From contig NZ_JBALCZ010000040.1 of assembly GCF_036917615.1 (NCBI RefSeq), forward strand, positions 80,292-144,291: DNA of 64,000 nt, written 5' to 3'. Of this stretch, positions 16,686 through 56,554 are shown in pieces. The notes under the pieces were generated by a model that saw only the letters and a program-made list of their open reading frames with translations, searched no databases and was not told where the DNA came from. The stretch's first letter is position 1, and each line of letters opens with the position of its first letter. The DNA is from Nostoc sp. (GTDB taxonomy: Bacteria; Cyanobacteriota; Cyanobacteriia; Cyanobacteriales; Nostocaceae). Position numbers and translations under genes: made by a program.

Positions 16686-17115
16686 TTCTCTTTACATTTT
16701 ACAATCTTAAAACTATCAGTCCTCAACCTAGAAATTTTGCCACTATTTGGTGCTGACCTTGGCTTGCCTAATTTAATTTGGTGGATCAAAACGATTCATA
16801 GCCGTGCCCACAGAATCATGGGAGAACTAACTGCCAAAAATCAAAACCACTGCTGCAAACTCAATGGATCTGTAGAGAATACATGGTTTAGGTCTTTGGT
16901 AGGGGTGTATAGCTGTGCATTACTACTAGGTAATTTGTATTAATTGCTTCATAGATATCCCTGTAAGCATGAAACAACACCACAGTTCTCTCTTTTCGTC
17001 TTATATCTAAAGGTAGAAGATAAATATTAACTCAATTTTGGGAAACCTAACCTAAGAAGGGTTCATTCCCAAAAGATGTCCTGCTTATGTATCACAGAAT
17101 GCAACTGAGGTTCAG

Positions 17116-18138
17116 ATGACGCAACCTTTAAATCAAGTCAAAGAGTGGGAACAACGTCGTGAGCAAGCAAACCGCTACTACCAGTGCGGGAAATTTCAAG
17201 AATCTCTCGATCTTGCAACCAAAAATTTACACTTGGCTAGAGCAATTCCAGACCGAGTTAGGGAAGGTTATACATTGAACGACCTCGGTTTAGCTCACCT
17301 CAGTTGCTGGCAACCTCAAAGAGCATTAGAGGTGTTTCATCAGGCACTTTTGGTTGCTGTCGAAATTGGCAACGCGCCAGCACAAGCAACTGCACTTAGC
17401 AATTTGGGTTCTACCTACAGCCGTCTTGGACGCTTTTCGCAAGCGTTGGAATATTTTGATCAAGCACTGCCAATCTTTAGGCGATTGCAAGATATTGAAA
17501 GTGAAGTTTCTATTCTTAATGATGTAGCGCTAATTTATACCCACTTAGGAGAACCGAAACGGGCACTGTTACTACAACACCAAATTTTGAGGATGCGGCG
17601 ATTGTTAGGTGACTTTTCTGGTGAGGCAACAACCCTAAATGCCATTGGCTTTGCTTACAATATCTTAGGCAAGTTTGAGCAAGCTCTAGAATTTTTACAA
17701 GCAGCACTTCCAATTCAACGAGCTGTCAAGAATTTGGTTGGTGAAGCAACCACTTTGAATAATATTGCCTCAATCTATAGTGATTTAGGAAAACCGAAAC
17801 AAGCGTTATTACTCTACTATCAAGTTCTTTTGACACGTCGAGCAATCCGCGATCGCTCTGGCGAGGCAACAACGCTTCACAACATTGGTTTTACCTACAG
17901 CACCCTGGCAGAGCATCGGCAGGCAATGAAGTTCTATAAACAAGCCATTACGATTTATCAACAACTAAACGATTGTCTCGGAGAAATTTCAACTTTGCTG
18001 AATATGGGAAGCCTTTACGCCACAACGAAACGCAAAAAATTGGCGCGATCGTGCTACCAAAATGCCCAAGAGTTAGCAGAGAAAATCGAACATCAGCCAC
18101 TCCTGGAAAAAGTACAGCAGTTTATAGATTCTCTCTAG
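17116..18138 (+). CDS. TPR-repeat protein (about eight TPR_12-like units)
   Basis: 340 aa with a recurring 40-aa pattern GEATTLNxIGxxYxxLGxxxQALxxxxQAL. Confidence 0.85.
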   Translation: MTQPLNQVKEWEQRREQANRYYQCGKFQESLDLATKNLHLARAIPDRVREGYTLNDLGLAHLSCWQPQRALEVFHQALLVAVEIGNAPAQATALSNLGSTYSRLGRFSQALEYFDQALPIFRRLQDIESEVSILNDVALIYTHLGEPKRALLLQHQILRMRRLLGDFSGEATTLNAIGFAYNILGKFEQALEFLQAALPIQRAVKNLVGEATTLNNIASIYSDLGKPKQALLLYYQVLLTRRAIRDRSGEATTLHNIGFTYSTLAEHRQAMKFYKQAITIYQQLNDCLGEISTLLNMGSLYATTKRKKLARSCYQNAQELAEKIEHQPLLEKVQQFIDSL

Positions 18139-44333: not shown

Positions 44334-45518
44334 ATGAATTTACCTGTAGTTGTGGATATTACTATTGGCTTAGTTTTTATTTACTTGATTTTGAGCTTAA
44401 TAGCTTCCGAAATTCAGGAACTGATTGCCACATTTTTACAATGGAGAGCTAAACATTTAAAACATTCAATAGAATTACTTTTAGCAGGTGGTAGCGAAAC
44501 TGAAAAATCAGAGTTTGAGAAGGCACAAGAGTTAGTGCAGGAGCTTTATCAAGATCCTTTAATTAATACTTTAAATCAACAAGCTAAGGGAAAAGTAGAA
44601 TATCTGTTACGGGAGAATGCTAAAAATAGTGACAAAAAAACCAGAAAAGCATTAGGAAACAAACAAAGCGCCCCTTCATATCTTCCTTCGGAAACATTTG
44701 CAAGTAGCTTATTAAATGCCTTAAAAATTCCCCAGTTAATTACTTATGTAAAACATCCTAGTGACGAATTTAAAACTAACTTGTACATGATCTTAGCATC
44801 TTATAAGGAACTTAAAACAGGAATTAATGATCCCAATAGTGAGAGTTACAAAAAAATTAAACAAGTTTATGGAGATTTTGATCAAAAGTTTATAGACTTT
44901 GTTAATAATGATTTACCTGATTATGTACCTAATAATTTAATTACGAGTCTTGGGATTATTGGTCAACGTAGTCGGATAAAAATTGATGACCTCTCAGAAG
45001 AAGTGAATCAGTTTAAAAATGAAGTTGAAACATGGTTTGACCGCTCTATGGATCGAGCAAGTGGTGTTTATAAGCGTAATGCCAAAGGAGTTGCAATTTT
45101 AATTGGAATATTAGTTGCAATATTAACCAATACTGATACATTTCACCTCGCGAAAAGACTGTCGCAGGATTCGGTTATCCGCTCTGCGATTACTCAAAGT
45201 GCAAGTCAACGAACCGATTTTATCAAAGATCCAGAAGCCAGAAAGGAAATTGAGAAAGTTTTAGGAAATGCTTCTATACCTATTGGATGGCAAAATATCA
45301 ATCAACAGTTTGAGCTAGATACTCAAGGCTCGAATAGGGGAAACGTTTTATTAATCATTTGGCAGGGTTTGAAATTAATTTGCGGTTGGATACTGACTGG
45401 TTTAGCTGTTGCGATGGGTGCGCCTTTTTGGTTTGATATCCTTAATAAAGTTATCAATGTGCGGAATTCAGGGCCAAAACCTGTTGCGTATACTAAGGAT
45501 CAACCTTCTCAGAAATAG
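44334..45518 (+). CDS. Hypothetical membrane protein encoded by an AT-rich gene
   Basis: 394 aa with an N-terminal TM and two C-terminal TM helices ending GAPFWFDILNKV. Confidence 0.6.
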   Translation: MNLPVVVDITIGLVFIYLILSLIASEIQELIATFLQWRAKHLKHSIELLLAGGSETEKSEFEKAQELVQELYQDPLINTLNQQAKGKVEYLLRENAKNSDKKTRKALGNKQSAPSYLPSETFASSLLNALKIPQLITYVKHPSDEFKTNLYMILASYKELKTGINDPNSESYKKIKQVYGDFDQKFIDFVNNDLPDYVPNNLITSLGIIGQRSRIKIDDLSEEVNQFKNEVETWFDRSMDRASGVYKRNAKGVAILIGILVAILTNTDTFHLAKRLSQDSVIRSAITQSASQRTDFIKDPEARKEIEKVLGNASIPIGWQNINQQFELDTQGSNRGNVLLIIWQGLKLICGWILTGLAVAMGAPFWFDILNKVINVRNSGPKPVAYTKDQPSQK

Positions 45519-46215: not shown

Positions 46216-47532
46216 TTAAAAAATAAAAATAATTTCTAGTTTTAATTCTTTATTCTGAAGAGTAATCTGAATTTGCCTGATGAATTCTCGAAAGTAAAAT
46301 CGTCGCTCTGTTTCTGACAAATCTAACCAAAATTGTGGTATGGAAACAGCTTGAGCAACAGAACGCAAGTTAACTGGAGGAAGAGTCGCTAACTTTGCTT
46401 CGAGTGCAGAAATTTCTGTGCGGAGTTTATAAGCCCTTAACTTTGCTGTTTCAACATCTAAAATTCCAGTTTCAATCAAAGCGGGTAACTGAGCAAGTAT
46501 TTCTTGCTGACGAGCGATCGCTTGTCCTAAACTATTCTTGACTGCATCCAATTGGGGAAAATTCATCCCCGCTACAGCTAAGGGTAAGTCACGGCAAACC
46601 GTTTCAATTGTATGTTCTAAAACCTCTTGATAGGGAATAGCCTTACACTTGGGGCTTTGAGGACAGCTAGTAGAACGTAAATAAAGATACTCCTTATCTT
46701 GATTGCGTTGGGTGACACGAGTAACTGTCATGTGTGATTGACACTCAGCACAGACTACCAACCCAGCTAAAGAACGTGGCGCACTAGCAGTTCGGGATGG
46801 TAAACGGCTGTTACGGCGTAAAAGTCGGTCAACTTGGGCTGCTTCTTCTTTAGAAATTATCGGAATATGGGTATTGGAGATAATTTCACCATTTTGGTAA
46901 GCTGTATTGCCGCGATAAACTGGATTAGTTAGCCAGCGTCTTCCTGTGGTGACAGAGATTTTTTTGGCGTATTTTTTCGCCAAGTAACGAACTGAACCCC
47001 GCAGGGAACCATAGAGTAAAAAGTGTTCAAAAAAATCTTTGACTACTGGTGAAGTACTGCGGTCAATGGTATATTTTCCCTTACCTCTGCGATAGCCGTA
47101 GGGAACTTTGCCGGGTGGCGGTGCAACATCGAGACGATTACGGGCGTGTCCTTCACGGATGCGACGACTACGTTGCTGACGTTGGATTGCGTGTAGCAAA
47201 TTCAGCAAGTCAGCGCCCAGAGGGTAATTTTCGGAAGTGTAGGGCTGTTCAGTGGCGATGATCGCTACTCCCATTGCTTCGAGTTGATGCAAGCGATCGC
47301 TAATTTCCTCTACAGTATCCCCTAATTCTTCCAACCGACGAATCAGGAGATAATCTGCTCCTTCAGTTTGGCAATCGGTAAATAATTGTTGTAATTGCGT
47401 TCGCGTAGCGTGTCCAAAGGACTCTGGCTTACCCAAATCTTCATAAACCTGATCCACCTCCCATCCCCAATCAGCTTGATCGGGAGAAGATTCTAATAGC
47501 GGATTGGTATAAGAGTAGGCAATGATTTTCAT
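46216..47532 (-). CDS. Large serine-recombinase-family protein with non-canonical catalytic positions
   Basis: 438 aa. Contains a resolvase-like N-domain, a recombinase domain (PYGYRRGKGKYTID...WLTNPVYRGN), a zinc ribbon (CAECQSH...CPQSPKC) and a C-terminal coiled coil. Confidence 0.75.
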   Translation of the reverse strand: MKIIAYSYTNPLLESSPDQADWGWEVDQVYEDLGKPESFGHATRTQLQQLFTDCQTEGADYLLIRRLEELGDTVEEISDRLHQLEAMGVAIIATEQPYTSENYPLGADLLNLLHAIQRQQRSRRIREGHARNRLDVAPPPGKVPYGYRRGKGKYTIDRSTSPVVKDFFEHFLLYGSLRGSVRYLAKKYAKKISVTTGRRWLTNPVYRGNTAYQNGEIISNTHIPIISKEEAAQVDRLLRRNSRLPSRTASAPRSLAGLVVCAECQSHMTVTRVTQRNQDKEYLYLRSTSCPQSPKCKAIPYQEVLEHTIETVCRDLPLAVAGMNFPQLDAVKNSLGQAIARQQEILAQLPALIETGILDVETAKLRAYKLRTEISALEAKLATLPPVNLRSVAQAVSIPQFWLDLSETERRFYFREFIRQIQITLQNKELKLEIIFIF

Positions 47533-48136: not shown

Positions 48137-48595
48137 ATGATGGATGCTCAATTAAGTCATACGGAAATGAATGTTGCACGGGGGATATTACAAGATTACG
48201 ATCCTGCACAACACGCATTGAATCACTTGGAAAAACACAATGGCAAAGTTGAAACCGCTTTTGAGGATTTGTGGATTGAGAAAAATGGACAACCGTTGAT
48301 GCAGCAAAGAAAATCACTTTGGCAAGTAACACTAAAGGTATTGCGTGAGGAACTCTGTGGCGATGATGGTTTTCGCGGCCAACTTCAAGATTACACGAAG
48401 AATCCAGGGAGTTCGCCCTTGCTGACAGGGTTGATTATCTCCCTTGTTGGTGTAGCGACGGCACACGGTTTGCCAATTGATCCAGCGATCGCAACTGTTA
48501 TTGTTTTATACATCCTCAAAATCGGCTTGAATATTTTTTGCGAATACACCGAAGCACCCGTTAGCAATTCTGGAACTCTAGCGCCAGGAAACTGA
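48137..48595 (+). CDS. Hypothetical protein with a hydrophobic C-terminal segment
   Basis: 152-aa ORF. No motif recognised. Confidence 0.45.
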   Translation: MMDAQLSHTEMNVARGILQDYDPAQHALNHLEKHNGKVETAFEDLWIEKNGQPLMQQRKSLWQVTLKVLREELCGDDGFRGQLQDYTKNPGSSPLLTGLIISLVGVATAHGLPIDPAIATVIVLYILKIGLNIFCEYTEAPVSNSGTLAPGN

Positions 48596-49455: not shown

Positions 49456-49518
49456 GATTGTATCGACTGACAATGCCATTGTATCGACTGACAATGCGAT
49501 TGTATTGACTTGCTACAC
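49456..49518. repeat. Three tandem 21-bp units, each with internal dyad symmetry (CATTGT..ACAATG)
   Basis: gattgtatcgactgacaatgc / cattgtatcgactgacaatgc / gattgtattgacttgctacac. Confidence 0.85.
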
Positions 49519-49569: not shown

Positions 49570-51267
49570 TCACTCCGGTAATCTCTTTAACGCCTCCCGT
49601 GCGATCGCCCCCCAATATTCATCCTCATACTCAACATATATCTCCAAGGCTGTCTGCAAATTAACCCTCGCCTCTGCGTAGTTTTCTTCTGCTTCTGCAA
49701 GCGTTCCTAATTGACCGTAGGTACTGGCTTGGGAATAGCTATCACCAAATTCGATATCGATTGCCAAAGCTTGTTGGTAATTGCGCCGCGCTTCTTCAAA
49801 TTCAAACAAATTTTGGGCAACTCTTCCCAACTCGTGGTAGGTGTCAGCTTGAGAATAGCGATCGCCAAATTCGATATTGATTGCCAAAGCTTGTTGGTAA
49901 TTGCGCCGCGCCTCTTCAAATTCCCGTAAATCTTGGGCAACATATCCCAACTGGTGGTAGGTGTCAGCTTGCGAATAGCGATCGTCAAATTCAATGAAGA
50001 TTGCCAAAGCTTGTTGGTAATTGTACCGCGCCTCCTCAAATTCATCCAATTCTTGGGCAACTCTTCCCAACTGGTGATAGGTGTCAGCTTGCGAGTAGCG
50101 ATCGTCAAATTCGATGAAGATTGCGAAAGCTTGTTGGTAATTGCGCCGCGCCTCTTCAAATTCTCGCAATTTTTGGGCAACCATTCCCAACTGGTGGTAT
50201 GTGTCAGCTTGTGAATAGCGATCACCTATTTGTTGTTCAATTTCTAAACGCTGTTGATAAAAAGTTGTCGCCTGTGTAAATTGTCTCAATTCCAAGTAAG
50301 CATTACCAAGTTTCAACAAAGCAGCAATTTCGCCGCGAGGATTCTGAAGTTGCTGTGAAATACTTAAAGATTTTTGATAATAAGCGATCGCTCTATCAAA
50401 TTGCCTTTGCTGAGAATAAGAATCTCCTAATGTATTGAGGACTTCAGCATGGAAGGTGGAATCTGGAAACTCACTAGCTATTTTTTCAGCTTCTTCTAAA
50501 TATTCTCTAGCTTTGATAGGTTCTATCTTACTTAGATACGCGACTCCTAGCTGATGCAAAATATTACTACAGTTGCGGAGGTTTTCTCCTGTCGGATTAT
50601 GTCCAGTAGGTTTATATTCCATTAGCAGGCGGTGTAATAAATCGATTCGCTCTTGCTTTTCTGAAGGTTCTAATCTGTTTATAATTCTCTCAGTAGTTTG
50701 AGCCTCATTAATCGCATAATCTTTAGTAATTTGAGGTGTTTTAAACCGAAATATACCCGATTGCCAAGCCCAAAAATCAGGAGCAAATTTGGCTAACCGA
50801 GTCAGGGCATAATCTGGCAGAATAAACAGAATCGGATGAGGAACAGTTCTTTTATAAGCATCTCGGACAAAGTTGAGGTCTTGTAAAACTGGCGGATAGT
50901 CTCCATAAACGCCAATAGACTTTTCTAAACCTTGTATAATCAAGACTAATTTTCTGTTAGATTCTATCTCAATAGTTGGTAATATCTTGATAATTTCATC
51001 CCGGAGAAATCGCAAATTTGCATCAGAAAAACTCAGACTAACAAACTGAATATGCCGACACTCAGGATTTGTCTTTAGCGCCTCAACTAATATTTTTACA
51101 TCTGGGGGAAAATTAATTTCCACAAAACCAATCGTAAACTTTTCTGCAAAGTCTACAAAGGTGAGTAATTGAGCAAATATCTCTTGATTAAGGGCGATAA
51201 ACGGCCCGATTTCTGAACTAAGGTTGCGCTGCGAGTGCGGATGCGAGGGCTTTCTGGAAGAATTCAT
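49570..51267 (-). CDS. TPR-repeat protein with an uncharacterised N-terminal domain of about 180 aa
   Basis: 565 aa. The C-terminal two thirds are TPR units. The start overlaps the upstream ATPase gene by 50 nt. Confidence 0.8.
   Translation of the reverse strand: MNSSRKPSHPHSQRNLSSEIGPFIALNQEIFAQLLTFVDFAEKFTIGFVEINFPPDVKILVEALKTNPECRHIQFVSLSFSDANLRFLRDEIIKILPTIEIESNRKLVLIIQGLEKSIGVYGDYPPVLQDLNFVRDAYKRTVPHPILFILPDYALTRLAKFAPDFWAWQSGIFRFKTPQITKDYAINEAQTTERIINRLEPSEKQERIDLLHRLLMEYKPTGHNPTGENLRNCSNILHQLGVAYLSKIEPIKAREYLEEAEKIASEFPDSTFHAEVLNTLGDSYSQQRQFDRAIAYYQKSLSISQQLQNPRGEIAALLKLGNAYLELRQFTQATTFYQQRLEIEQQIGDRYSQADTYHQLGMVAQKLREFEEARRNYQQAFAIFIEFDDRYSQADTYHQLGRVAQELDEFEEARYNYQQALAIFIEFDDRYSQADTYHQLGYVAQDLREFEEARRNYQQALAINIEFGDRYSQADTYHELGRVAQNLFEFEEARRNYQQALAIDIEFGDSYSQASTYGQLGTLAEAEENYAEARVNLQTALEIYVEYEDEYWGAIAREALKRLPE
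49690..50235. repeat. About 4.5 tandem 120-bp units (40-aa modules) inside the TPR gene
   Basis: gcttgttggtaattgcgccgcgc recurs at 49769, 49889 and 50129, with one mismatch at 50009. agcgatc recurs at 49856, 49976, 50096 and 50216. The encoded unit is DRYSQADTYHQLGxVAQxLxEFEEARRNYQQALAIxIEF. Confidence 0.9.
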
Positions 51268-52561
51268 TTTGCTTCACCACTGGATTGGGGTAATTCCATC
51301 GTTTATCGCCGTTGTATTCCAAAACTGAAGTGTTGAACAGCATTAACTGACCAATATCATCTTTGCTGACATTCTTGGTTATACACACTTGGGCTAAAAA
51401 CGCATAATGTTCTTCAGGAATAAACCTTTCAAAACTAAATTGCTGTTGTTTCACAGCATACATAATATCTTCGGCAATAATTTTGGGATGTTTACGAGTA
51501 CTAGCAGTTTGGCAAGCAGTCCGCATCATCTGCATTAATTGGCGGACATGTCCTCCACTGGCTTTGGCTAAATCTAGCAATTCCTGGCGAGATTCAAATA
51601 CAGCATCAATATCTACGCGCTTTTCAATGACGCTGGCAACTGCTTCTAGTCCCGTTTGATTGTAGTTTAAATGGCAGCGATCGCGTTCAAATTCATAAAT
51701 ATTCACCATTGGGACAATATGAGGATTACCATCAAACTGATTGAGTGGGTTTTTAGGCGAACAAAGCACAGAAATTGGAACTGTATAAATTATCGTGCAG
51801 TCTAATTCTTGTAACTGAGCCGCATAGTCAAAAAATAAATGTTCTGCAATTGTCGGTGGTACACGATCCATGTTATCAAAAATAATCAATAAACCCTTAC
51901 ATTGAGGTAATTTTTTTCGGAGTTTAACATAGGCATCTCCTAATAAAAGGTTAATATCTGCTTTGAGACGTGATAGGTCTTTTTCTAAAGTTTGGCGAAT
52001 AGTAGTTTTTTGCTTATCAGAACCTTTAATTTGTGCCAGTAATTTGACCATCAATTTAGCGATAAATGGAGCTTCTGGTTTCAGAGTCGCTTCTCCCTGA
52101 ATACTGACAGACTTTTCTACAGTTTCTTCTGTTTCTTTAGTAATATCCTTAAACCAAGATTCAAAGTTTTCTAAAAGTTGAGGATCAAATTTTAAACCTA
52201 ATTTACGCAACTCAAATTCTACTTGCTTGATGACGATTAAATATAAATCTGTATAATTAGCATCATTAATATCTGTTTCTTCGTTCACTTCTAAATAAAT
52301 TACGTGGTATTGTTTTTCCCATTGGTTCTGAATGCGTTTTAACTCTGTACTTTTGCCACAGCCGCGATGTCCGGTAAACAAAATTGTGCTGAAATCTGCG
52401 GGTTCTTGAAAGTCTAAAATCGTACTAACGCTGTCAATTGCTGAAGTTTTGCGGACTGCTGATAAATCAACATAGTAACGCTCCATGTCTGCACCCTCTA
52501 GCGGTTCAACATTACAAACTTGAAATGCAGCTTTGAGAGTATTAGCACGCTGGTGATTCAT
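51218..52561 (-). CDS. STAND/ORC-Cdc6-like P-loop ATPase
   Basis: 447 aa with Walker A GHRGCGKST, Walker B LLIIFDNMD, a GGHVRQL helical region and a winged-helix-like C-terminus. Confidence 0.75.
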   Translation of the reverse strand: MNHQRANTLKAAFQVCNVEPLEGADMERYYVDLSAVRKTSAIDSVSTILDFQEPADFSTILFTGHRGCGKSTELKRIQNQWEKQYHVIYLEVNEETDINDANYTDLYLIVIKQVEFELRKLGLKFDPQLLENFESWFKDITKETEETVEKSVSIQGEATLKPEAPFIAKLMVKLLAQIKGSDKQKTTIRQTLEKDLSRLKADINLLLGDAYVKLRKKLPQCKGLLIIFDNMDRVPPTIAEHLFFDYAAQLQELDCTIIYTVPISVLCSPKNPLNQFDGNPHIVPMVNIYEFERDRCHLNYNQTGLEAVASVIEKRVDIDAVFESRQELLDLAKASGGHVRQLMQMMRTACQTASTRKHPKIIAEDIMYAVKQQQFSFERFIPEEHYAFLAQVCITKNVSKDDIGQLMLFNTSVLEYNGDKRWNYPNPVVKQNEFFQKALASALAAQP

Positions 52562-53302
52562 TGGGTTTTGACTAACTTTATAAATATGACTTTCTCAATC
52601 TTAAATTTTAGGCGATCGCAGTGCGATTTTACATCTGATCAAAGTTTACTTCTTGATACTACATCGTAATATGTTATACATAAATCAACTAAATAACGAT
52701 ATAACCTAAAAAATTTTTACCGGATGGCTGCGATCGCGCTATCTTGAAAAATGAACTTTCAAGTATGTAAAACTGATGAAAGGCTAAAATCCATATATAT
52801 ATAGATATATATCATCAACGAACAGCATGAAAATAAATTAATTGTCTTGATTGAGGATGTTTCCGATAGGCTAGTACCGCAAGGCGGAAGTCACTCATTC
52901 AAAAGTCACTCATTCAAAAGTATTATGGAATAAGCTCTTTAGGGCTTTTCAATGGTCTATTTATTTACGCCGTGCTGTACTAGTTTTAAAGCAAAACTTA
53001 GCACAGCAAGCCAATGAAATAAATCTGCTATCAAGCAATACACTTGGGTTAAGGATTATTTGTAGTTGGGTTGAACCTAGACGCCGGAGGCGGCTTAAGG
53101 CAGGTAGTGAAACCCAACAAACCACGAAAAATGTTGGGTTTTGTTCCTCAAACGCCACTTGCTAAAGAGCGGGAAAGCTAAGAGCGAACAACTCTTGGAA
53201 AATACGCAACGCAGTGGCTCCCCAACCTACGCTGGTTTTGGTTTTTGGCTTTAACCCAAGCGTATTGTGCTATCAAGTACTTTAATTTTATACAAAAATT
53301 AC

Positions 53303-55207
53303 ATGGATCAAGTAATTACTGCAATGGCAGATGCTTTGTTTTTAACCAATAATTTAGGAAAAATCAAAAAAGTAAATCGTGCTGCTCAACAATTATTTGG
53401 TTTTAGTGAAGAAGAATTAATTAATCAACCAATATCACTGATAATTGATGATGATCAAGGATTAATCCCAGCCATTCACCAGCATTCTTCTTTTCAGAAA
53501 GATTTTCCGAATTTCGAGGTAGTTTGTCGAACCAAGACAAGAGAAAAGCGGCTAATTGCTTTTTCTTGTTCAGTAATTCCGAAAAAAATAAAAGGATTAG
53601 AAGATATTGTCTATATTGGTCGGGATATTACTGCTCGGCAGCAGCGGGAACAGCGTACAAGTACCCAGTATGCTATCACTCATATATTATCAGAATCCGA
53701 GAGTGTAAAGCAGGTAATTCCGCAAATTTTGCAGTCGATTTGTCAAAACTTGGGATGGGATTTAGGCGAACTTTGGACACCAAGTCAATATATTGGCACT
53801 TCGGTACCGAGACACAGCATCAATGCAGTACTAAGGTGTGTGGAAATTTGGTCAAGTCGAGTAATTTCTATCCGAGAGTTTAAAGCAATCACCTGGCAAA
53901 CTACCTATACACCCGGTGTTGGCTTACCTGGTCGAATTTGGATCAGACGTTTGCCCTTGTGGATTCAAGATATCACAGAAGATGGAGACAAAAGGCGATC
54001 GCAACCTGCTGCTGAGGCGGGATTGCACGCAGCTTTTGGCTTCCCCATCTTAGAGGATAGTGAAATCTTAGGAGTGATGGTTTTCTTTAGCCGGGAGGTA
54101 CAACCAAAAGATAAAGACCTATTGCAAATGGTGGGTTCTATTGGTAGTCAAATCGCCCAGTTTATTAAACGTAAACAAGCTTTATATGCTCTTGTAGAAA
54201 GTGAAGAACAATATCGAGATTTATTTGAAAATGCTAATGATCTGATTCAATCCGTCAATGCCTATGGTCGTTTTTTGTATGTCAATCGTGCATGGCGAGA
54301 AACTTTGGGATATAGTGAAGCTGAAATTGCAAATATGACTGTTTTTGATATTATACATCCAGACTTTAAACAAGACTGTTGGCAAAGGTTTTATCGCGTG
54401 CTGTCAGGAGAAAAGTTCGAGCAAGTAATAGTCGCATTCGTTACTAAAGACGGTAAAACAATCTTTCTAGAAAGTAATATTAACTGTAAATTTGTCGAAG
54501 GTCATCCAGTTGCGGTTCGCGGCATTTTTCGCAATGTCACCCAGCGACTAGCAGTAGAAGAAGCGCTGCACCATCATCAAGAAGAAACCGAACGTTTATT
54601 GCTGAATATTTTGCCAGCCGCAATCTCCAAACCCTTGAACGAAGAACCAGCTAACATTGCCGAAGATTTTGCTGATATCACAGTTTTATTTGCAGATATT
54701 GTCGGCTTTACCGAAATTGCTGCTTCTGTGAGTGCAATTCAAGTGGTAAACTTACTAAACTCGATTTTCTCAGCCTTAGATCGCCTCGCCGAGCAATATA
54801 GTTTAGAGAAAATCAAGACGATTAACGATGCTTATATGGTAGTTGGTGGCTTATCCACACGCCGCCTAGATCATGCCCAAGCGATCGCCCAAATGGCACT
54901 GCACATGCAAACTGCGATCGCTCTATTTAATACTGAGAATAACCAAAACTTCAGCATCCGTATCGGCATCCATAGCGGTTCCGTAGTGGCGGGAGTAATT
55001 GACCTCAACAAGTTTACTTATGATCTTTGGGGAGACACGGTAAACATCGCTAGCTGTATGGAATTCCAAGGTATTATTGGTAAAATCCAGGTTACAGAAG
55101 ATACTTATAAGTGTTTGTGTGATCAATTTTTATTTGAAAAGCGGGGCGAAATCGAACTTCAAGGCAAAGGGAAAATAACAACTTATTTCTTGATTGGGCA
55201 AAAGTGA
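53303..55207 (+). CDS. PAS-GAF-PAS class III adenylate cyclase homologue
   Basis: Cyclase motifs VLFADIVGFTE, KTINDAYMVVGG, YDLWGDTVN. Start placed at the ATG (MDQVITA) rather than the GTG at 53267. Confidence 0.85.
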   Translation: MDQVITAMADALFLTNNLGKIKKVNRAAQQLFGFSEEELINQPISLIIDDDQGLIPAIHQHSSFQKDFPNFEVVCRTKTREKRLIAFSCSVIPKKIKGLEDIVYIGRDITARQQREQRTSTQYAITHILSESESVKQVIPQILQSICQNLGWDLGELWTPSQYIGTSVPRHSINAVLRCVEIWSSRVISIREFKAITWQTTYTPGVGLPGRIWIRRLPLWIQDITEDGDKRRSQPAAEAGLHAAFGFPILEDSEILGVMVFFSREVQPKDKDLLQMVGSIGSQIAQFIKRKQALYALVESEEQYRDLFENANDLIQSVNAYGRFLYVNRAWRETLGYSEAEIANMTVFDIIHPDFKQDCWQRFYRVLSGEKFEQVIVAFVTKDGKTIFLESNINCKFVEGHPVAVRGIFRNVTQRLAVEEALHHHQEETERLLLNILPAAISKPLNEEPANIAEDFADITVLFADIVGFTEIAASVSAIQVVNLLNSIFSALDRLAEQYSLEKIKTINDAYMVVGGLSTRRLDHAQAIAQMALHMQTAIALFNTENNQNFSIRIGIHSGSVVAGVIDLNKFTYDLWGDTVNIASCMEFQGIIGKIQVTEDTYKCLCDQFLFEKRGEIELQGKGKITTYFLIGQK

Positions 55208-55378: not shown

Positions 55379-56554
55379 CTAATTAGCATTCGGAATCAGC
55401 CGACCACAGGGATAAGTCGCTGTTTGCTTTTGGGCACTTTGGGACACTGCTGCTGGAACCTGATCCGATGGTTGGGTTTTGGCTGCTAGATAGTCTTTTT
55501 GCAGTTTCTCCAAAATGGCTTCTCGCCTGTCGTACACACGCTTCAGGGGACGAGGCTGGCACTTGTTCAAGACGTATGCTGTCACCAGTGGTAGAGCGAT
55601 CGTGCTATCGGTATAACAAACAATTGCGTTAGGTAACTCTTCCGGGTCAATCTTCCCCCAGCTGACGGCTTCCGATGGGGTTGCACCAGACAAACCGCCT
55701 GTATCTGGACGCGCATCGGTAAACTGCACAAAGTAATCGTGTCCTCGTTCTTCAAGTCCCAATACTTCGTGAAGTTGCGGTTGGGTTTGTAGCAAAAAGT
55801 TTTTAGGACTACCGCCACCGAGAATTACAGCCGCACTTTTACCTCCTGATTCACGGGCATTATATGCGATCGCAGCCGTCTCATTTACGTCAATTGATGG
55901 ATCTAACACCAACTGCGAACCTTCCAAAGCCAAAGCCGCCACGTTCATCCCAATTGAGCTATCTCCTGGAGAAGACGTATAAATCGGTACGCCATACTCA
56001 TAAGCTGTAGCAAGCAAGCAAGAATGCTGCACACCCAGCTGCTTTTCTACTTCTCGAACATACTTACCCAGTAAATAGTGAAACTCAGCAGTTCCCATCC
56101 GCTTCTGAAATGCTTCCCCTTGCAGAATCTTGCGGATGAACGCATCAGTTTCCAGCAGCACATCGTAACCAAAGATAATGTCATAAATGCGAATAGTGCC
56201 TTCCTGGCGCAGTTTCACATCATCCAAAAACGGATTACCAGCAAAGAGTTCAAAACCCAAACCGTAGTGCATATCGTGGTAAAGATTTGCACCAGTGCTA
56301 ATCATCCAGTCAATAAAGCCGTTGCGAATTAAGGGTGCAAGTGCTGAAACCCCAAATCCGGCTGGTGTCATCGCACCCGAAAGGCTAACTCCCACCGTGA
56401 CACCTGCCGTTAGCACATCGCGACTCAGAAGTTGGCAGATTTCCCGCAAACGTGCCGAGTTGTAAGCGGTGAAGTATTGATCAATCAAATCCACCACATT
56501 GATATCATTTGATATGGGTGTCGGTGCGATTTTTTGACCCAGCTGTTTAGACAT
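55379..56554 (-). CDS. Deoxyhypusine-synthase-like protein
   Basis: 391 aa with family pattern [10 protein letters not shown] and the length and order of conserved blocks. Confidence 0.8.

Follow-up and report, generated by a model that had tools for sequence, protein, structure and literature searches.

Two overlapping genes on the minus strand of a 64,000-nt stretch of a Nostoc sp. contig (NZ_JBALCZ010000040.1, positions 80,292 to 144,291; hereafter the window) encode a P-loop ATPase and a partner protein with tetratricopeptide repeats (TPRs). We propose, with moderate confidence, that the two products are the subunits of a bipartite NLR-like nucleotide switch and that they belong to a family likely involved in biological conflict. 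In relatives the same cassette is joined to NACHT-TPR, nSTAND1-WD40, TIR and PtuA modules, and by analogy anti-phage or non-self sensing is therefore the most likely occupation of the family. This immune role is inferred from the distant relatives and not from the window locus, whose pair appears from its sequence to be a minimal, effector-less and chromosomally fixed form of the cassette. The initial annotation of the window had suggested a split between a nucleoside triphosphatase (NTPase) and a sensor; two proteins are indeed paired, but what they bring together is predicted to be an active and an inactive NTPase module, and not an NTPase and a sensor only.

From its motifs, which are intact, the first gene product is predicted to be an active, soluble KAP/AAA_16-like P-loop ATPase with an AAA+-type lid (Table 1). 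Walker A and Walker B lie where the initial annotation had placed them. In an alignment of 93 family representatives G67, G69 and K70 of the P-loop are invariant, as are G336 and G337, and D229, T260, P262, P284, R315 and R340 are nearly so, the lid arginine R340 being conserved in 92% of the members. The C-terminal region carries a conserved LEYxGxxxWxYPNP motif with Y416, W422 and P427 nearly invariant. KAP_NTPase (PF07693) is the sole Pfam model above its cut-off (28.6 bits for a cut-off of 20), with only profile positions 4–171 of 293 aligned. The STAND/ORC type to which the protein had first been assigned did not hold: AAA_14, AAA_22, ATPase_2, AAA_16, NACHT, Cdc6_lid and ORC-CDC6-like all remained under their Pfam cut-offs. 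The STAND-type scores were 19.0 against 32.6 for AAA_16, 16.4 against 26.7 for NACHT and 14.5 against 34 for nSTAND5, and the ORC-type ones 17.9 against 181.3 for TIGR02928, over the lid only, and 11.4 against 27 for ORC-CDC6-like; the weak Cdc6_lid and TIGR02928 matches cover residues 329–373. STAND proteins are marked by a GxP motif in the helical domain that follows their NTPase core. This motif is missing from the lid of the window protein and of its family, where the consensus is SGGxxRDL, with a conserved arginine and no proline. Given this lid and the scores below cut-off, we did not file the ATPase as STAND or ORC. Across the 93 representatives, Pfam matches were found to AAA_16 (78), AAA_22 (69), ATPase_2 (39), KAP (33), nSTAND5 (31) and ORC-CDC6-like (18), those of STAND type being widespread yet weak. 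Scans with NCBIfam and PADLOC gave nothing strong, and the profiles matched were confined to KAP, AAA_16, STAND and ORC-like models, with no housekeeping family among them.

The secondary structure taken from an AlphaFold2 (AF2) model consists of a P-loop core, a 115-residue charged helical insert, a helical lid and a winged-helix-like end, this last pattern being modelled with a predicted local distance difference test (pLDDT) score of about 55–80. STAND NTPases also have a winged helix beyond the lid, and the weakly modelled pattern would be in keeping with one. The insert, in which 34% of the residues are charged, is positioned as in KAP NTPases, yet it is soluble and without a transmembrane segment; the ATPase has no hydrophobic segment at all, its highest Kyte-Doolittle value over a 19-residue window being 1.15. 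The best PDB sequence match is RdrA of the RADAR system (8fnu, E=2.4e-5), in which 'LVLIIDDLDLVE' aligns with the Walker B of the window protein. The ATPase thus shares with KAP NTPases, including RdrA (PDB 8fnu; PMC9994260), the long insert between Walker A and B and the IDDLDR-like Walker B. It differs from them in that the insert lacks transmembrane helices and only half of the KAP profile is matched, and from RADAR in that no RdrB deaminase partner accompanies the window pair. Foldseek searches with the ATPase model retrieved only weak matches, to Cdc6/Orc1 and RuvB (E > 0.008). These DNA-binding proteins, together with the winged-helix-like C-terminus and the weak TPR_MalT and AfsR-type TPR matches of the partner, would fit a MalT/AfsR-like transcription regulator split in two, whose TPRs would detect a protein or metabolite and whose DNA contact would be made by the winged-helix-like part of the ATPase. 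We consider such a regulator very improbable. Neither LuxR nor SARP nor any other domain dedicated to DNA-binding output was matched, the genes beside the pair include no conserved target operon, the winged-helix assignment comes from a low-confidence model, and distant relatives carry immune-type modules.

The partner protein begins with a domain that the initial annotation had called unrecognised and alpha/beta-looking. It is unrecognised in the sense that residues 1–239 match no Pfam model even at E<=10, that the domain has no NCBIfam match and that its profile has no PDB sequence match; it does not, however, seem to be an unknown alpha/beta fold. An alignment of 26 N-domain sequences (A1), in which residues K, E, N, R and R and an APDFWxW motif (APDFWAW in the window protein) are invariant, yielded an AF2 model with a five-strand alpha/beta fold and a pLDDT of 94.8. 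Compared with the PDB by Foldseek, this model matched AAA+ modules: those of Orc3, Aeropyrum ORC2, RFC3, clamp-loader delta and Rif2, with E-values of about 1e-4 and query-normalised TM-scores of 0.46–0.58, and that of TnsC. Orc3 ranked best (E=1e-4, TM-score 0.58), and several of the matches are catalytically dead AAA+ subunits. Strand 1 (TIGFVEINF) is followed by PPD and not by a P-loop (FTIGFVEINFPPD), and the Walker-B-like strand reads KLVLIIQGLE. Since PPD stands in the place of the P-loop in a modelled AAA+ fold, we called the domain a pseudo-ATPase; by this model, the partner N-domain is predicted to be AAA+-like and inactive (hereafter pseudo-AAA). With AAA+ machines that contain dead subunits (Orc2/3 of ORC, clamp-loader delta, Rif2) it shares, besides the best structural matches, the principle of active and degenerate protomers joined by common interfaces; it differs by the lack of sequence homology and of a replication context, by the absence of a lid and by its fusion to TPRs. 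Homologues of the domain are common in cyanobacteria, either as TPR fusions or as proteins of ~180 aa. A search with a profile of divergent pseudo-AAA domains added 14 short proteins only and no new architecture.

The pseudo-AAA domain may also contribute to catalysis. In the ATPase family no column with at least 50% arginine was found between residues 262 and 284 (strands 4–5; 93 relatives), and in this the family differs from the ORC/Cdc6 initiators, with their arginine finger between strands 4 and 5. The partner, in turn, carries an invariant arginine, Arg157 (R144 in A1 numbering), on the matching helix, so that a composite active site is possible. In the switch that we propose, the pseudo-AAA domain would act as an adaptor dedicated to docking. 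Each copy would hold one stand-alone ATPase by an interface of the kind found between AAA+ protomers, with Arg157 possibly completing the ATPase active site. Recognition of a variable protein ligand by the TPR array would shift the nucleotide state or the oligomerisation of the ATPase, and the assembled ATPase-partner complex would itself be the output.

The association of the two genes is essentially obligate. Scanning bacterial species representatives with A1 gave 275 loci, and the analysis went on with the best 80. In 88 of 89 cyanobacterial loci the gene immediately upstream of the partner gene is that of the ATPase; the sole exception is a locus that starts inside the partner gene. When the open reading frames (ORFs) flanking the pair were clustered over 84 loci, only the ATPase and the partner were common to all; the next commonest neighbours were a deoxyhypusine synthase (22 loci), a PAS-GAF cyclase (20) and a 150-aa protein (17). 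A pseudo-AAA domain, with E-values of 5e-66 to 4e-7, also follows the ATPase in nine of the ten distant relatives with readable downstream sequence. These paired relatives comprise loci L092 and L098, L100, L091 and L099, whose ATPases are respectively 46%, 46%, 37%, 30% and 27% identical to that of the window, and the plasmid paralogues L093, L094, L095 and L097, at 26–32%. The 50-nt overlap of the window genes was confirmed by their ORFs; orthologues overlap by 17–53 nt and distant relatives by 4–14 nt. A GGTGA Shine-Dalgarno-like motif stands just before the partner ATG, within the 3' end of the ATPase gene, and with the overlap it is consistent with translational coupling. The ATPase itself has 1165 homologues, with 76–97% identity across filamentous cyanobacteria (Nostoc, Dolichospermum, Coleofasciculus, Tychonema). 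Among 50%-identity representatives, an exhaustive search found 2,655 clusters at E<=1e-3, of which 245 also passed E<=1e-30. With few exceptions the representatives are stand-alone proteins of 430–470 aa that align end to end with 26–40% identity, some of them from Pseudanabaena or from metagenome-assembled genomes of Bipolaricaulota and Chloroflexota. The initial suggestion that the two genes belong together is thus upheld: they are neighbours everywhere examined, no housekeeping profile accounts for the ATPase, and the N-domain is not a known enzyme.

Distant members vary greatly in the modules attached to them. The partner is a pseudo-AAA domain followed by NACHT and TPRs at L099, a protein of more than 1,800 aa with pseudo-AAA, TPR, nSTAND1 and WD40 regions at L093 and L094, and a stand-alone pseudo-AAA domain of 155 aa at L097. 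A three-gene locus on plasmid4 of Calothrix sp. NIES-4101 (L095; AP018277.1, 26838–38097) contains two family ATPase genes, the second fused to a TIR domain, and a partner with two tandem full pseudo-AAA domains ahead of nSTAND1-WD40. The locus resembles the cassette in a more elaborate form that carries an effector. The count of ATPase genes to pseudo-AAA domains is 2:2 there and 1:1 at the other loci, which is our strongest argument for 1:1 docking. In proteins P0339 (1002 aa) and P0431 (880 aa) the family ATPase continues into a C-terminal ABC/OLD ATPase of the Septu PtuA type (PADLOC E=3e-68 and 1e-58). Directly upstream of the pair in Coleofasciculus chthonoplastes (L001, 4479–7934) lie genes for a full-length PbeC/DndD-like ATPase (PADLOC E=0) and for an RRXRR-HNH protein with weak PtuB matches; these form a phosphorothioation-type defence locus that adjoins the pair. 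Plasmid-borne paralogues adjoin HicAB, an integrase and a NACHT gene. Two further fusions place a HipA-like N-terminus (P0306) and a ParA-like KGGVGR NTPase (P0429) ahead of the family ATPase.

Partners that possess a NACHT or nSTAND1 NTPase of their own nevertheless keep the extra ATPase. This would be expected if the ATPase were a regulator, that is, a chaperone of the MoxR kind that keeps the pseudo-AAA-headed sensor switched off or returns it to that state, and so sets its threshold. Plasmid p057_J of Nostoc sp. C057 (L096, 4318–7242) provides a second point of this kind, with a 975-aa 'SAV_2336 N-terminal domain-related protein' beside a MoxR ATPase; the C-terminal module of this protein matches the ATPase family profile (E=3e-68), which connects the family with MoxR-centred systems. 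A pseudo-AAA domain was not detected at that locus. We regard a regulatory ATPase as improbable, because the window partner has no NTPase of its own, so that the output would have to come from another source, and because no vWA or MoxR genes lie near the pair. Returning to the two-subunit switch, its more specific form is that the ~165-aa pseudo-AAA domain is an undescribed adaptor through which one KAP-like ATPase per copy is recruited to varied sensor scaffolds (TPR-only, NACHT-TPR, TPR-nSTAND1-WD40) by a quasi-homotypic AAA+ protomer interface, with Arg157 acting in trans. We put this forward tentatively, as a possibility that we would not call probable. If true, it would be the heterotypic counterpart of the coupling principle of effector-associated domains (EADs), and the window pair would be a true split NLR, with switch and sensor as separate gene products.

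The usual description of an NLR or STAND receptor is that of a single chain, and the way in which such modules were first combined is an open question. Here, a widespread cassette would keep the nucleotide switch as a separate protein, tied to the sensor by a dead copy of the AAA+ fold, and the same adaptor also heads complete NLR-like proteins. Should the docking model hold, the pair would offer a simple two-protein system for the transfer of a signal from repeats to an NTPase, bring two families, one of ATPases and one of unannotated domains, into the set of bacterial conflict systems, and explain a conserved uncharacterised gene pair of model cyanobacteria, which in Anabaena PCC 7120 is presumably alr3806/alr3807.

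An active and an inactive NTPase paired with TPRs is already known as an idea in the literature. The closest precedent appears, by analogy, to be the two-gene nSTAND2 operon, a computational prediction in which an active STAND protein with a winged helix is encoded upstream of an inactive nSTAND2 module joined to a winged helix, TPRs and HEPN or GT4 (PMC8195603), and for which a hetero-multimer was proposed (Kaur et al. 2021 eLife, PMC8195603). In both systems the genes are adjacent, the active NTPase comes first, and an eroded NTPase module is fused to TPRs in the second product. The inactive nSTAND2 module, however, is ~320 aa long and keeps the GxP lid and the winged helix, and the operon is mobile and proteobacterial (PMC8195603), whereas the window partner retains only a ~165-aa core, with no lid and no HEPN/GT4 effector, and the window pair is chromosomal, syntenic and cyanobacterial. 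Membership of nSTAND2 was rejected, hhalign giving probabilities of 0.3% with the pseudo-AAA domain and 5.8% with the ATPase family, neither of them significant, with shallow profiles from a partly rebuilt published alignment that leave room for very remote homology. Single-chain NLR-like, Avs and bNACHT STAND receptors follow the same logic of an NTPase with a TPR or WD40 repeat sensor, and relatives of the partner contain NACHT-TPR or nSTAND1-WD40. In the window, by contrast, two polypeptides would be joined through a pseudo-ATPase domain, with no effector domain, and the ATPase departs from STAND NTPases (Leipe et al. 2004) in having neither repeat sensor nor effector in the same polypeptide. 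The inactive NTPase components iSTAND and iSTAND2 of MoxR-vWA ternary systems (Kaur et al. 2020, 2021) likewise employ an inactive NTPase module that has no catalytic part to play, and the systems concerned are enriched in multicellular cyanobacteria. They differ from the partner, which pairs with its own active ATPase and whose N-domain has no Pfam match. No MoxR or vWA genes were found in the window neighbourhood or in the 84 clustered loci, L096 being the only, and distant, locus with MoxR. Thus, neither iSTAND nor EAD was retained as a family for the N-domain. Neither the ATPase family nor the adaptor domain, nor the recurrent placement of this domain at the start of NLR-like proteins, turned up in Pfam, NCBIfam, PADLOC or the literature searched.

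The repeats of the partner, encoded apart from the 447-aa ATPase, which has none, behave as the initial annotation expected of a sensor. The TPR array is secure (TPR_12, E=6.8e-64, 212.5 bits for a cut-off of 30.1, seven stretches), and TPR families are the only ones matched in Pfam and NCBIfam, with no HEPN or GT4 effector. Tandem Repeats Finder detected a 120-bp period with 4.1 copies and 87% matches (49727–50223). The 120-bp units reported before are therefore real; to call them nearly identical and freshly amplified was an overstatement, since the four in-register units are 85–89% identical in DNA and 82–88% in protein, and a fifth unit is 57–60% identical to the four. When the units of the orthologues were extracted with a hidden Markov model of the 40-aa unit, at least two units with at least 80% identity to a sibling, typically 90–100%, were found in 59 of 65 proteins; with 89% at best, the window array is not unusually fresh. 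Partner length ranges from 404 to 833 aa, tracks unit number (r=0.89) and equals 564 or 565 modulo 40 in 39 of the 65 proteins, the strains thus differing by steps of 40 aa. Identical ATPases may stand beside partners of different length (604 and 484 aa within the PCC 7120 species, 757 and 717 aa in Tychonema). For 249 of 284 young units, compared with genomes below 85% N-domain identity, the nearest unit is a sibling within the protein itself, a sign of concerted evolution.

The ratio of non-synonymous to synonymous differences (pN/pS) is 0.50 between sibling units and 0.20 for N-domain orthologues, and the non-synonymous differences concentrate at unit positions 4, 5, 7, 11, 14, 18 and 36. 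When L12-G13 of the unit is placed on L7-G8 of the canonical TPR consensus, positions 7, 11, 14 and 18 share one face of helix A, which in a TPR forms the lining of the concave groove. The TPRs of fungal NLRs show high internal conservation, repeat-number polymorphism, concerted evolution and variable binding-face sites (Dyrka et al. 2014, PMC4986451), and the partner family resembles these fungal repeats (HET-E/NWD, TPR or ANK NLRs) in all of this behaviour. The fungal proteins differ in being eukaryotic single chains with NACHT or NB-ARC, for which positive selection was formally tested. Alternative-frame and antisense ORFs run through the window repeats (49707–50225, minus; 49711–49929 and 49933–50214, plus), and similar shadow ORFs cluster across 31–39 loci; they arise from the 120-bp periodicity and are not genes. 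Elsewhere in the window, a TPR-rich ORF (17056–18135, plus), 360 aa long in its frame, is recognised by the 40-aa unit model (E=1e-19), with no pseudo-AAA domain and no family ATPase nearby.

In Anabaena/Nostoc PCC 7120 the orthologous pair lies at 4,598,241–4,601,358 (4.598 Mb) and encodes BAB75505.1 and the 604-aa protein, which by position relative to named neighbouring genes we take to be alr3806 (ATPase) and alr3807 (partner). It is flanked by two sigma-factor genes; to one side of it lie genes for a deoxyhypusine synthase and an SDR protein, and to the other a ferritin gene and carB. Identity declines along the pair, from 76–97% in the ATPase to 67–91% in the pseudo-AAA domain and 46–91% in the first three TPRs. 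The neighbourhood of the window pair (recombinase homologue, glyoxalase, cyclase, deoxyhypusine synthase) is kept in close Nostoc genomes, and its synteny extends across Nostoc and Cylindrospermum. The mosaic composition first noted around the pair is real (GC content 0.26–0.50, with a serine-recombinase homologue); this synteny indicates, however, that the mosaic flank is old and not a recent insertion, and that the orthologue group has been inherited vertically.

Such conservation could also be that of a housekeeping cyanobacterial ATPase, a chaperone or assembly factor whose TPR partner is a scaffold adaptor and whose repeats vary by neutral slippage, the conserved complex being one of the cell envelope, the cytoskeleton or photosynthetic assembly. 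An ATPase identity that stays high from Nostoc to Tychonema and Coleofasciculus, the deoxyhypusine synthase gene found near the pair even in PCC 7120 and Stigonema, the lack of an effector, and the absence of the pair from phages and of its orthologue from plasmids are all in keeping with this view. So is the structural nature of many cyanobacterial TPR proteins, for example All4981 (PMC7002697). Yet the pair is missing from some genomes and decayed in a few others, with a broken ATPase ORF at L013, L016, L024 and L058 and a truncated pair in a complete genome (L081), and it is therefore dispensable. Moreover, the repeats vary on one face of helix A and not evenly, toxin-antitoxin or defence genes are often found in the flanks, and distant members are joined to NACHT, nSTAND1-WD40, TIR and PtuA modules. 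We therefore judge a housekeeping role rather unlikely. All4981, a filament-forming TPR protein of Anabaena (PMC7002697), is not the partner: all4981/all4982/all4983 were ruled out as the orthologous operon because they lie elsewhere on the chromosome and because the published primers imply different protein ends, All4981 starting with MNSELFQKLAKA and ending with KIQSSDSNI, in an operon with 4-bp ATGA overlaps. The 'accidental' 240-bp in-frame deletion of two TPRs described for this unrelated TPR gene (PMC7002697) equals 2 x 120 bp and suggests the same kind of recombination between 120-bp TPR units.

Several observations weigh against the bipartite conflict switch that we favour. The immune-like reading of the initial annotation finds support in the sensor-like repeats, but the orthologue group, conserved, effector-less and vertically inherited, differs from typical mobile defence genes; for an immune gene, a syntenic chromosomal position and 76–97% ATPase identity are unusual. 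The phage collection gave no match, and plasmids gave distant paralogues only and no orthologue. Neither a third gene nor an effector gene is conserved in the clustered loci. PADLOC 2.0 returned, as best matches for the pair, mad8 (2.6e-6, 25 bits) and a generic TPR model, with no Avs or NLR match, and neither alr3806 nor alr3807 was mentioned in the literature searched. The AF2 model of the ATPase, built on a shallow alignment, is poor (pLDDT 59) and served for secondary structure only. A common origin of the pseudo-AAA domain and the ATPase core is unproven, hhalign giving 9% over the Walker-B strands only, and Arg157 is a hypothetical candidate for a trans-acting arginine finger. As for the repeats, a crude omega (pN/pS) of about 1.4 at unit positions 14 and 36 suggests diversifying selection there but is also compatible with relaxed constraint. 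Many contigs end within the TPR array, and some of the copy-number differences could reflect repeat collapse in short-read assemblies.

Table 1. Features of the gene pair, with positions in the window and residues of the encoded protein
Feature	Residues	Position	Strand	Description or basis
Gene 1		52561..51218	minus	447-aa soluble P-loop ATPase, predicted KAP/AAA_16-like; ORF
Walker A / P-loop	64-72	52346..52372	minus	GHRGCGKST
Charged helical insert between Walker A and B	103-217	51911..52255	minus	AF2 secondary structure
Walker B strand	224-233	51863..51892	minus	LLIIFDNMDR; D229 nearly invariant
Lid motif	335-342	51536..51559	minus	SGGHVRQL; sensor-2-like arginine
C-terminal helix-helix-helix-strand-strand, winged-helix-like	363-444	51230..51475	minus	low-pLDDT AF2
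Gene 1/gene 2 overlap		51218..51267	minus	50 nt
Gene 2		51267..49570	minus	565 aa: predicted pseudo-AAA+ domain, linker, TPR array, C-terminal cap
Predicted pseudo-AAA+ domain	~20-185	50713..51210	minus	AF2 and Foldseek
Codon of invariant Arg157	157	50797..50799	minus	TRLAKFAPDFW; helix between strands 4 and 5; candidate arginine finger
TPR array	~229-548	49624..50583	minus	eight 40-aa units in register
Four amplified 120-bp/40-aa units	349-508	49744..50223	minus	85-89% nucleotide identity

Scans of window positions 48.5–53.5 kb for Rfam families, promoters and terminators gave no signal above background. Two short tandem repeats border the pair, one just 3' of the partner stop (49457–49510, 21 bp x 2.6 copies) and one in the intergenic region upstream of the ATPase (52888–52921, 15 bp x 2.3 copies, 100% identical), facing a divergent cyclase gene. 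The latter encodes a PAS-GAF-PAS adenylate/guanylate cyclase (53267–55207, plus), and the deoxyhypusine-synthase-like gene follows beyond it (55379–56554, minus).

On the other side of the pair, a convergent gene (48137–48595, plus) specifies a hypothetical protein of 152 aa that ends in a hydrophobic C-terminal segment (Kyte-Doolittle 2.18) and is matched by neither Pfam nor NCBIfam. The gene recurs in convergent orientation beyond the partner in 14 loci, among them those of Anabaena, Aphanizomenon and Coleofasciculus, with 59–67% identity. With only 14 loci it was not accepted as a conserved third gene; it may be a remnant of synteny, or a third gene that is only loosely linked to the pair. 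The recombinase homologue (46216–47532, minus) is a 438-aa protein of the large serine-recombinase type, with Resolvase, Recombinase and Zn-ribbon domains; its Resolvase match starts at profile position 31 and leaves the catalytic N-terminus uncovered. Its gene is syntenic in Cylindrospermum and in many Nostoc genomes, with 81–95% nucleotide identity, and is thus not a recent mobile insertion. Finally, a 394-aa ORF (44334–45518, plus) stands out by a GC content of 0.26–0.31, against about 0.42 around it; it has no Pfam or NCBIfam match and is conserved at 81–85% in close Nostoc loci.

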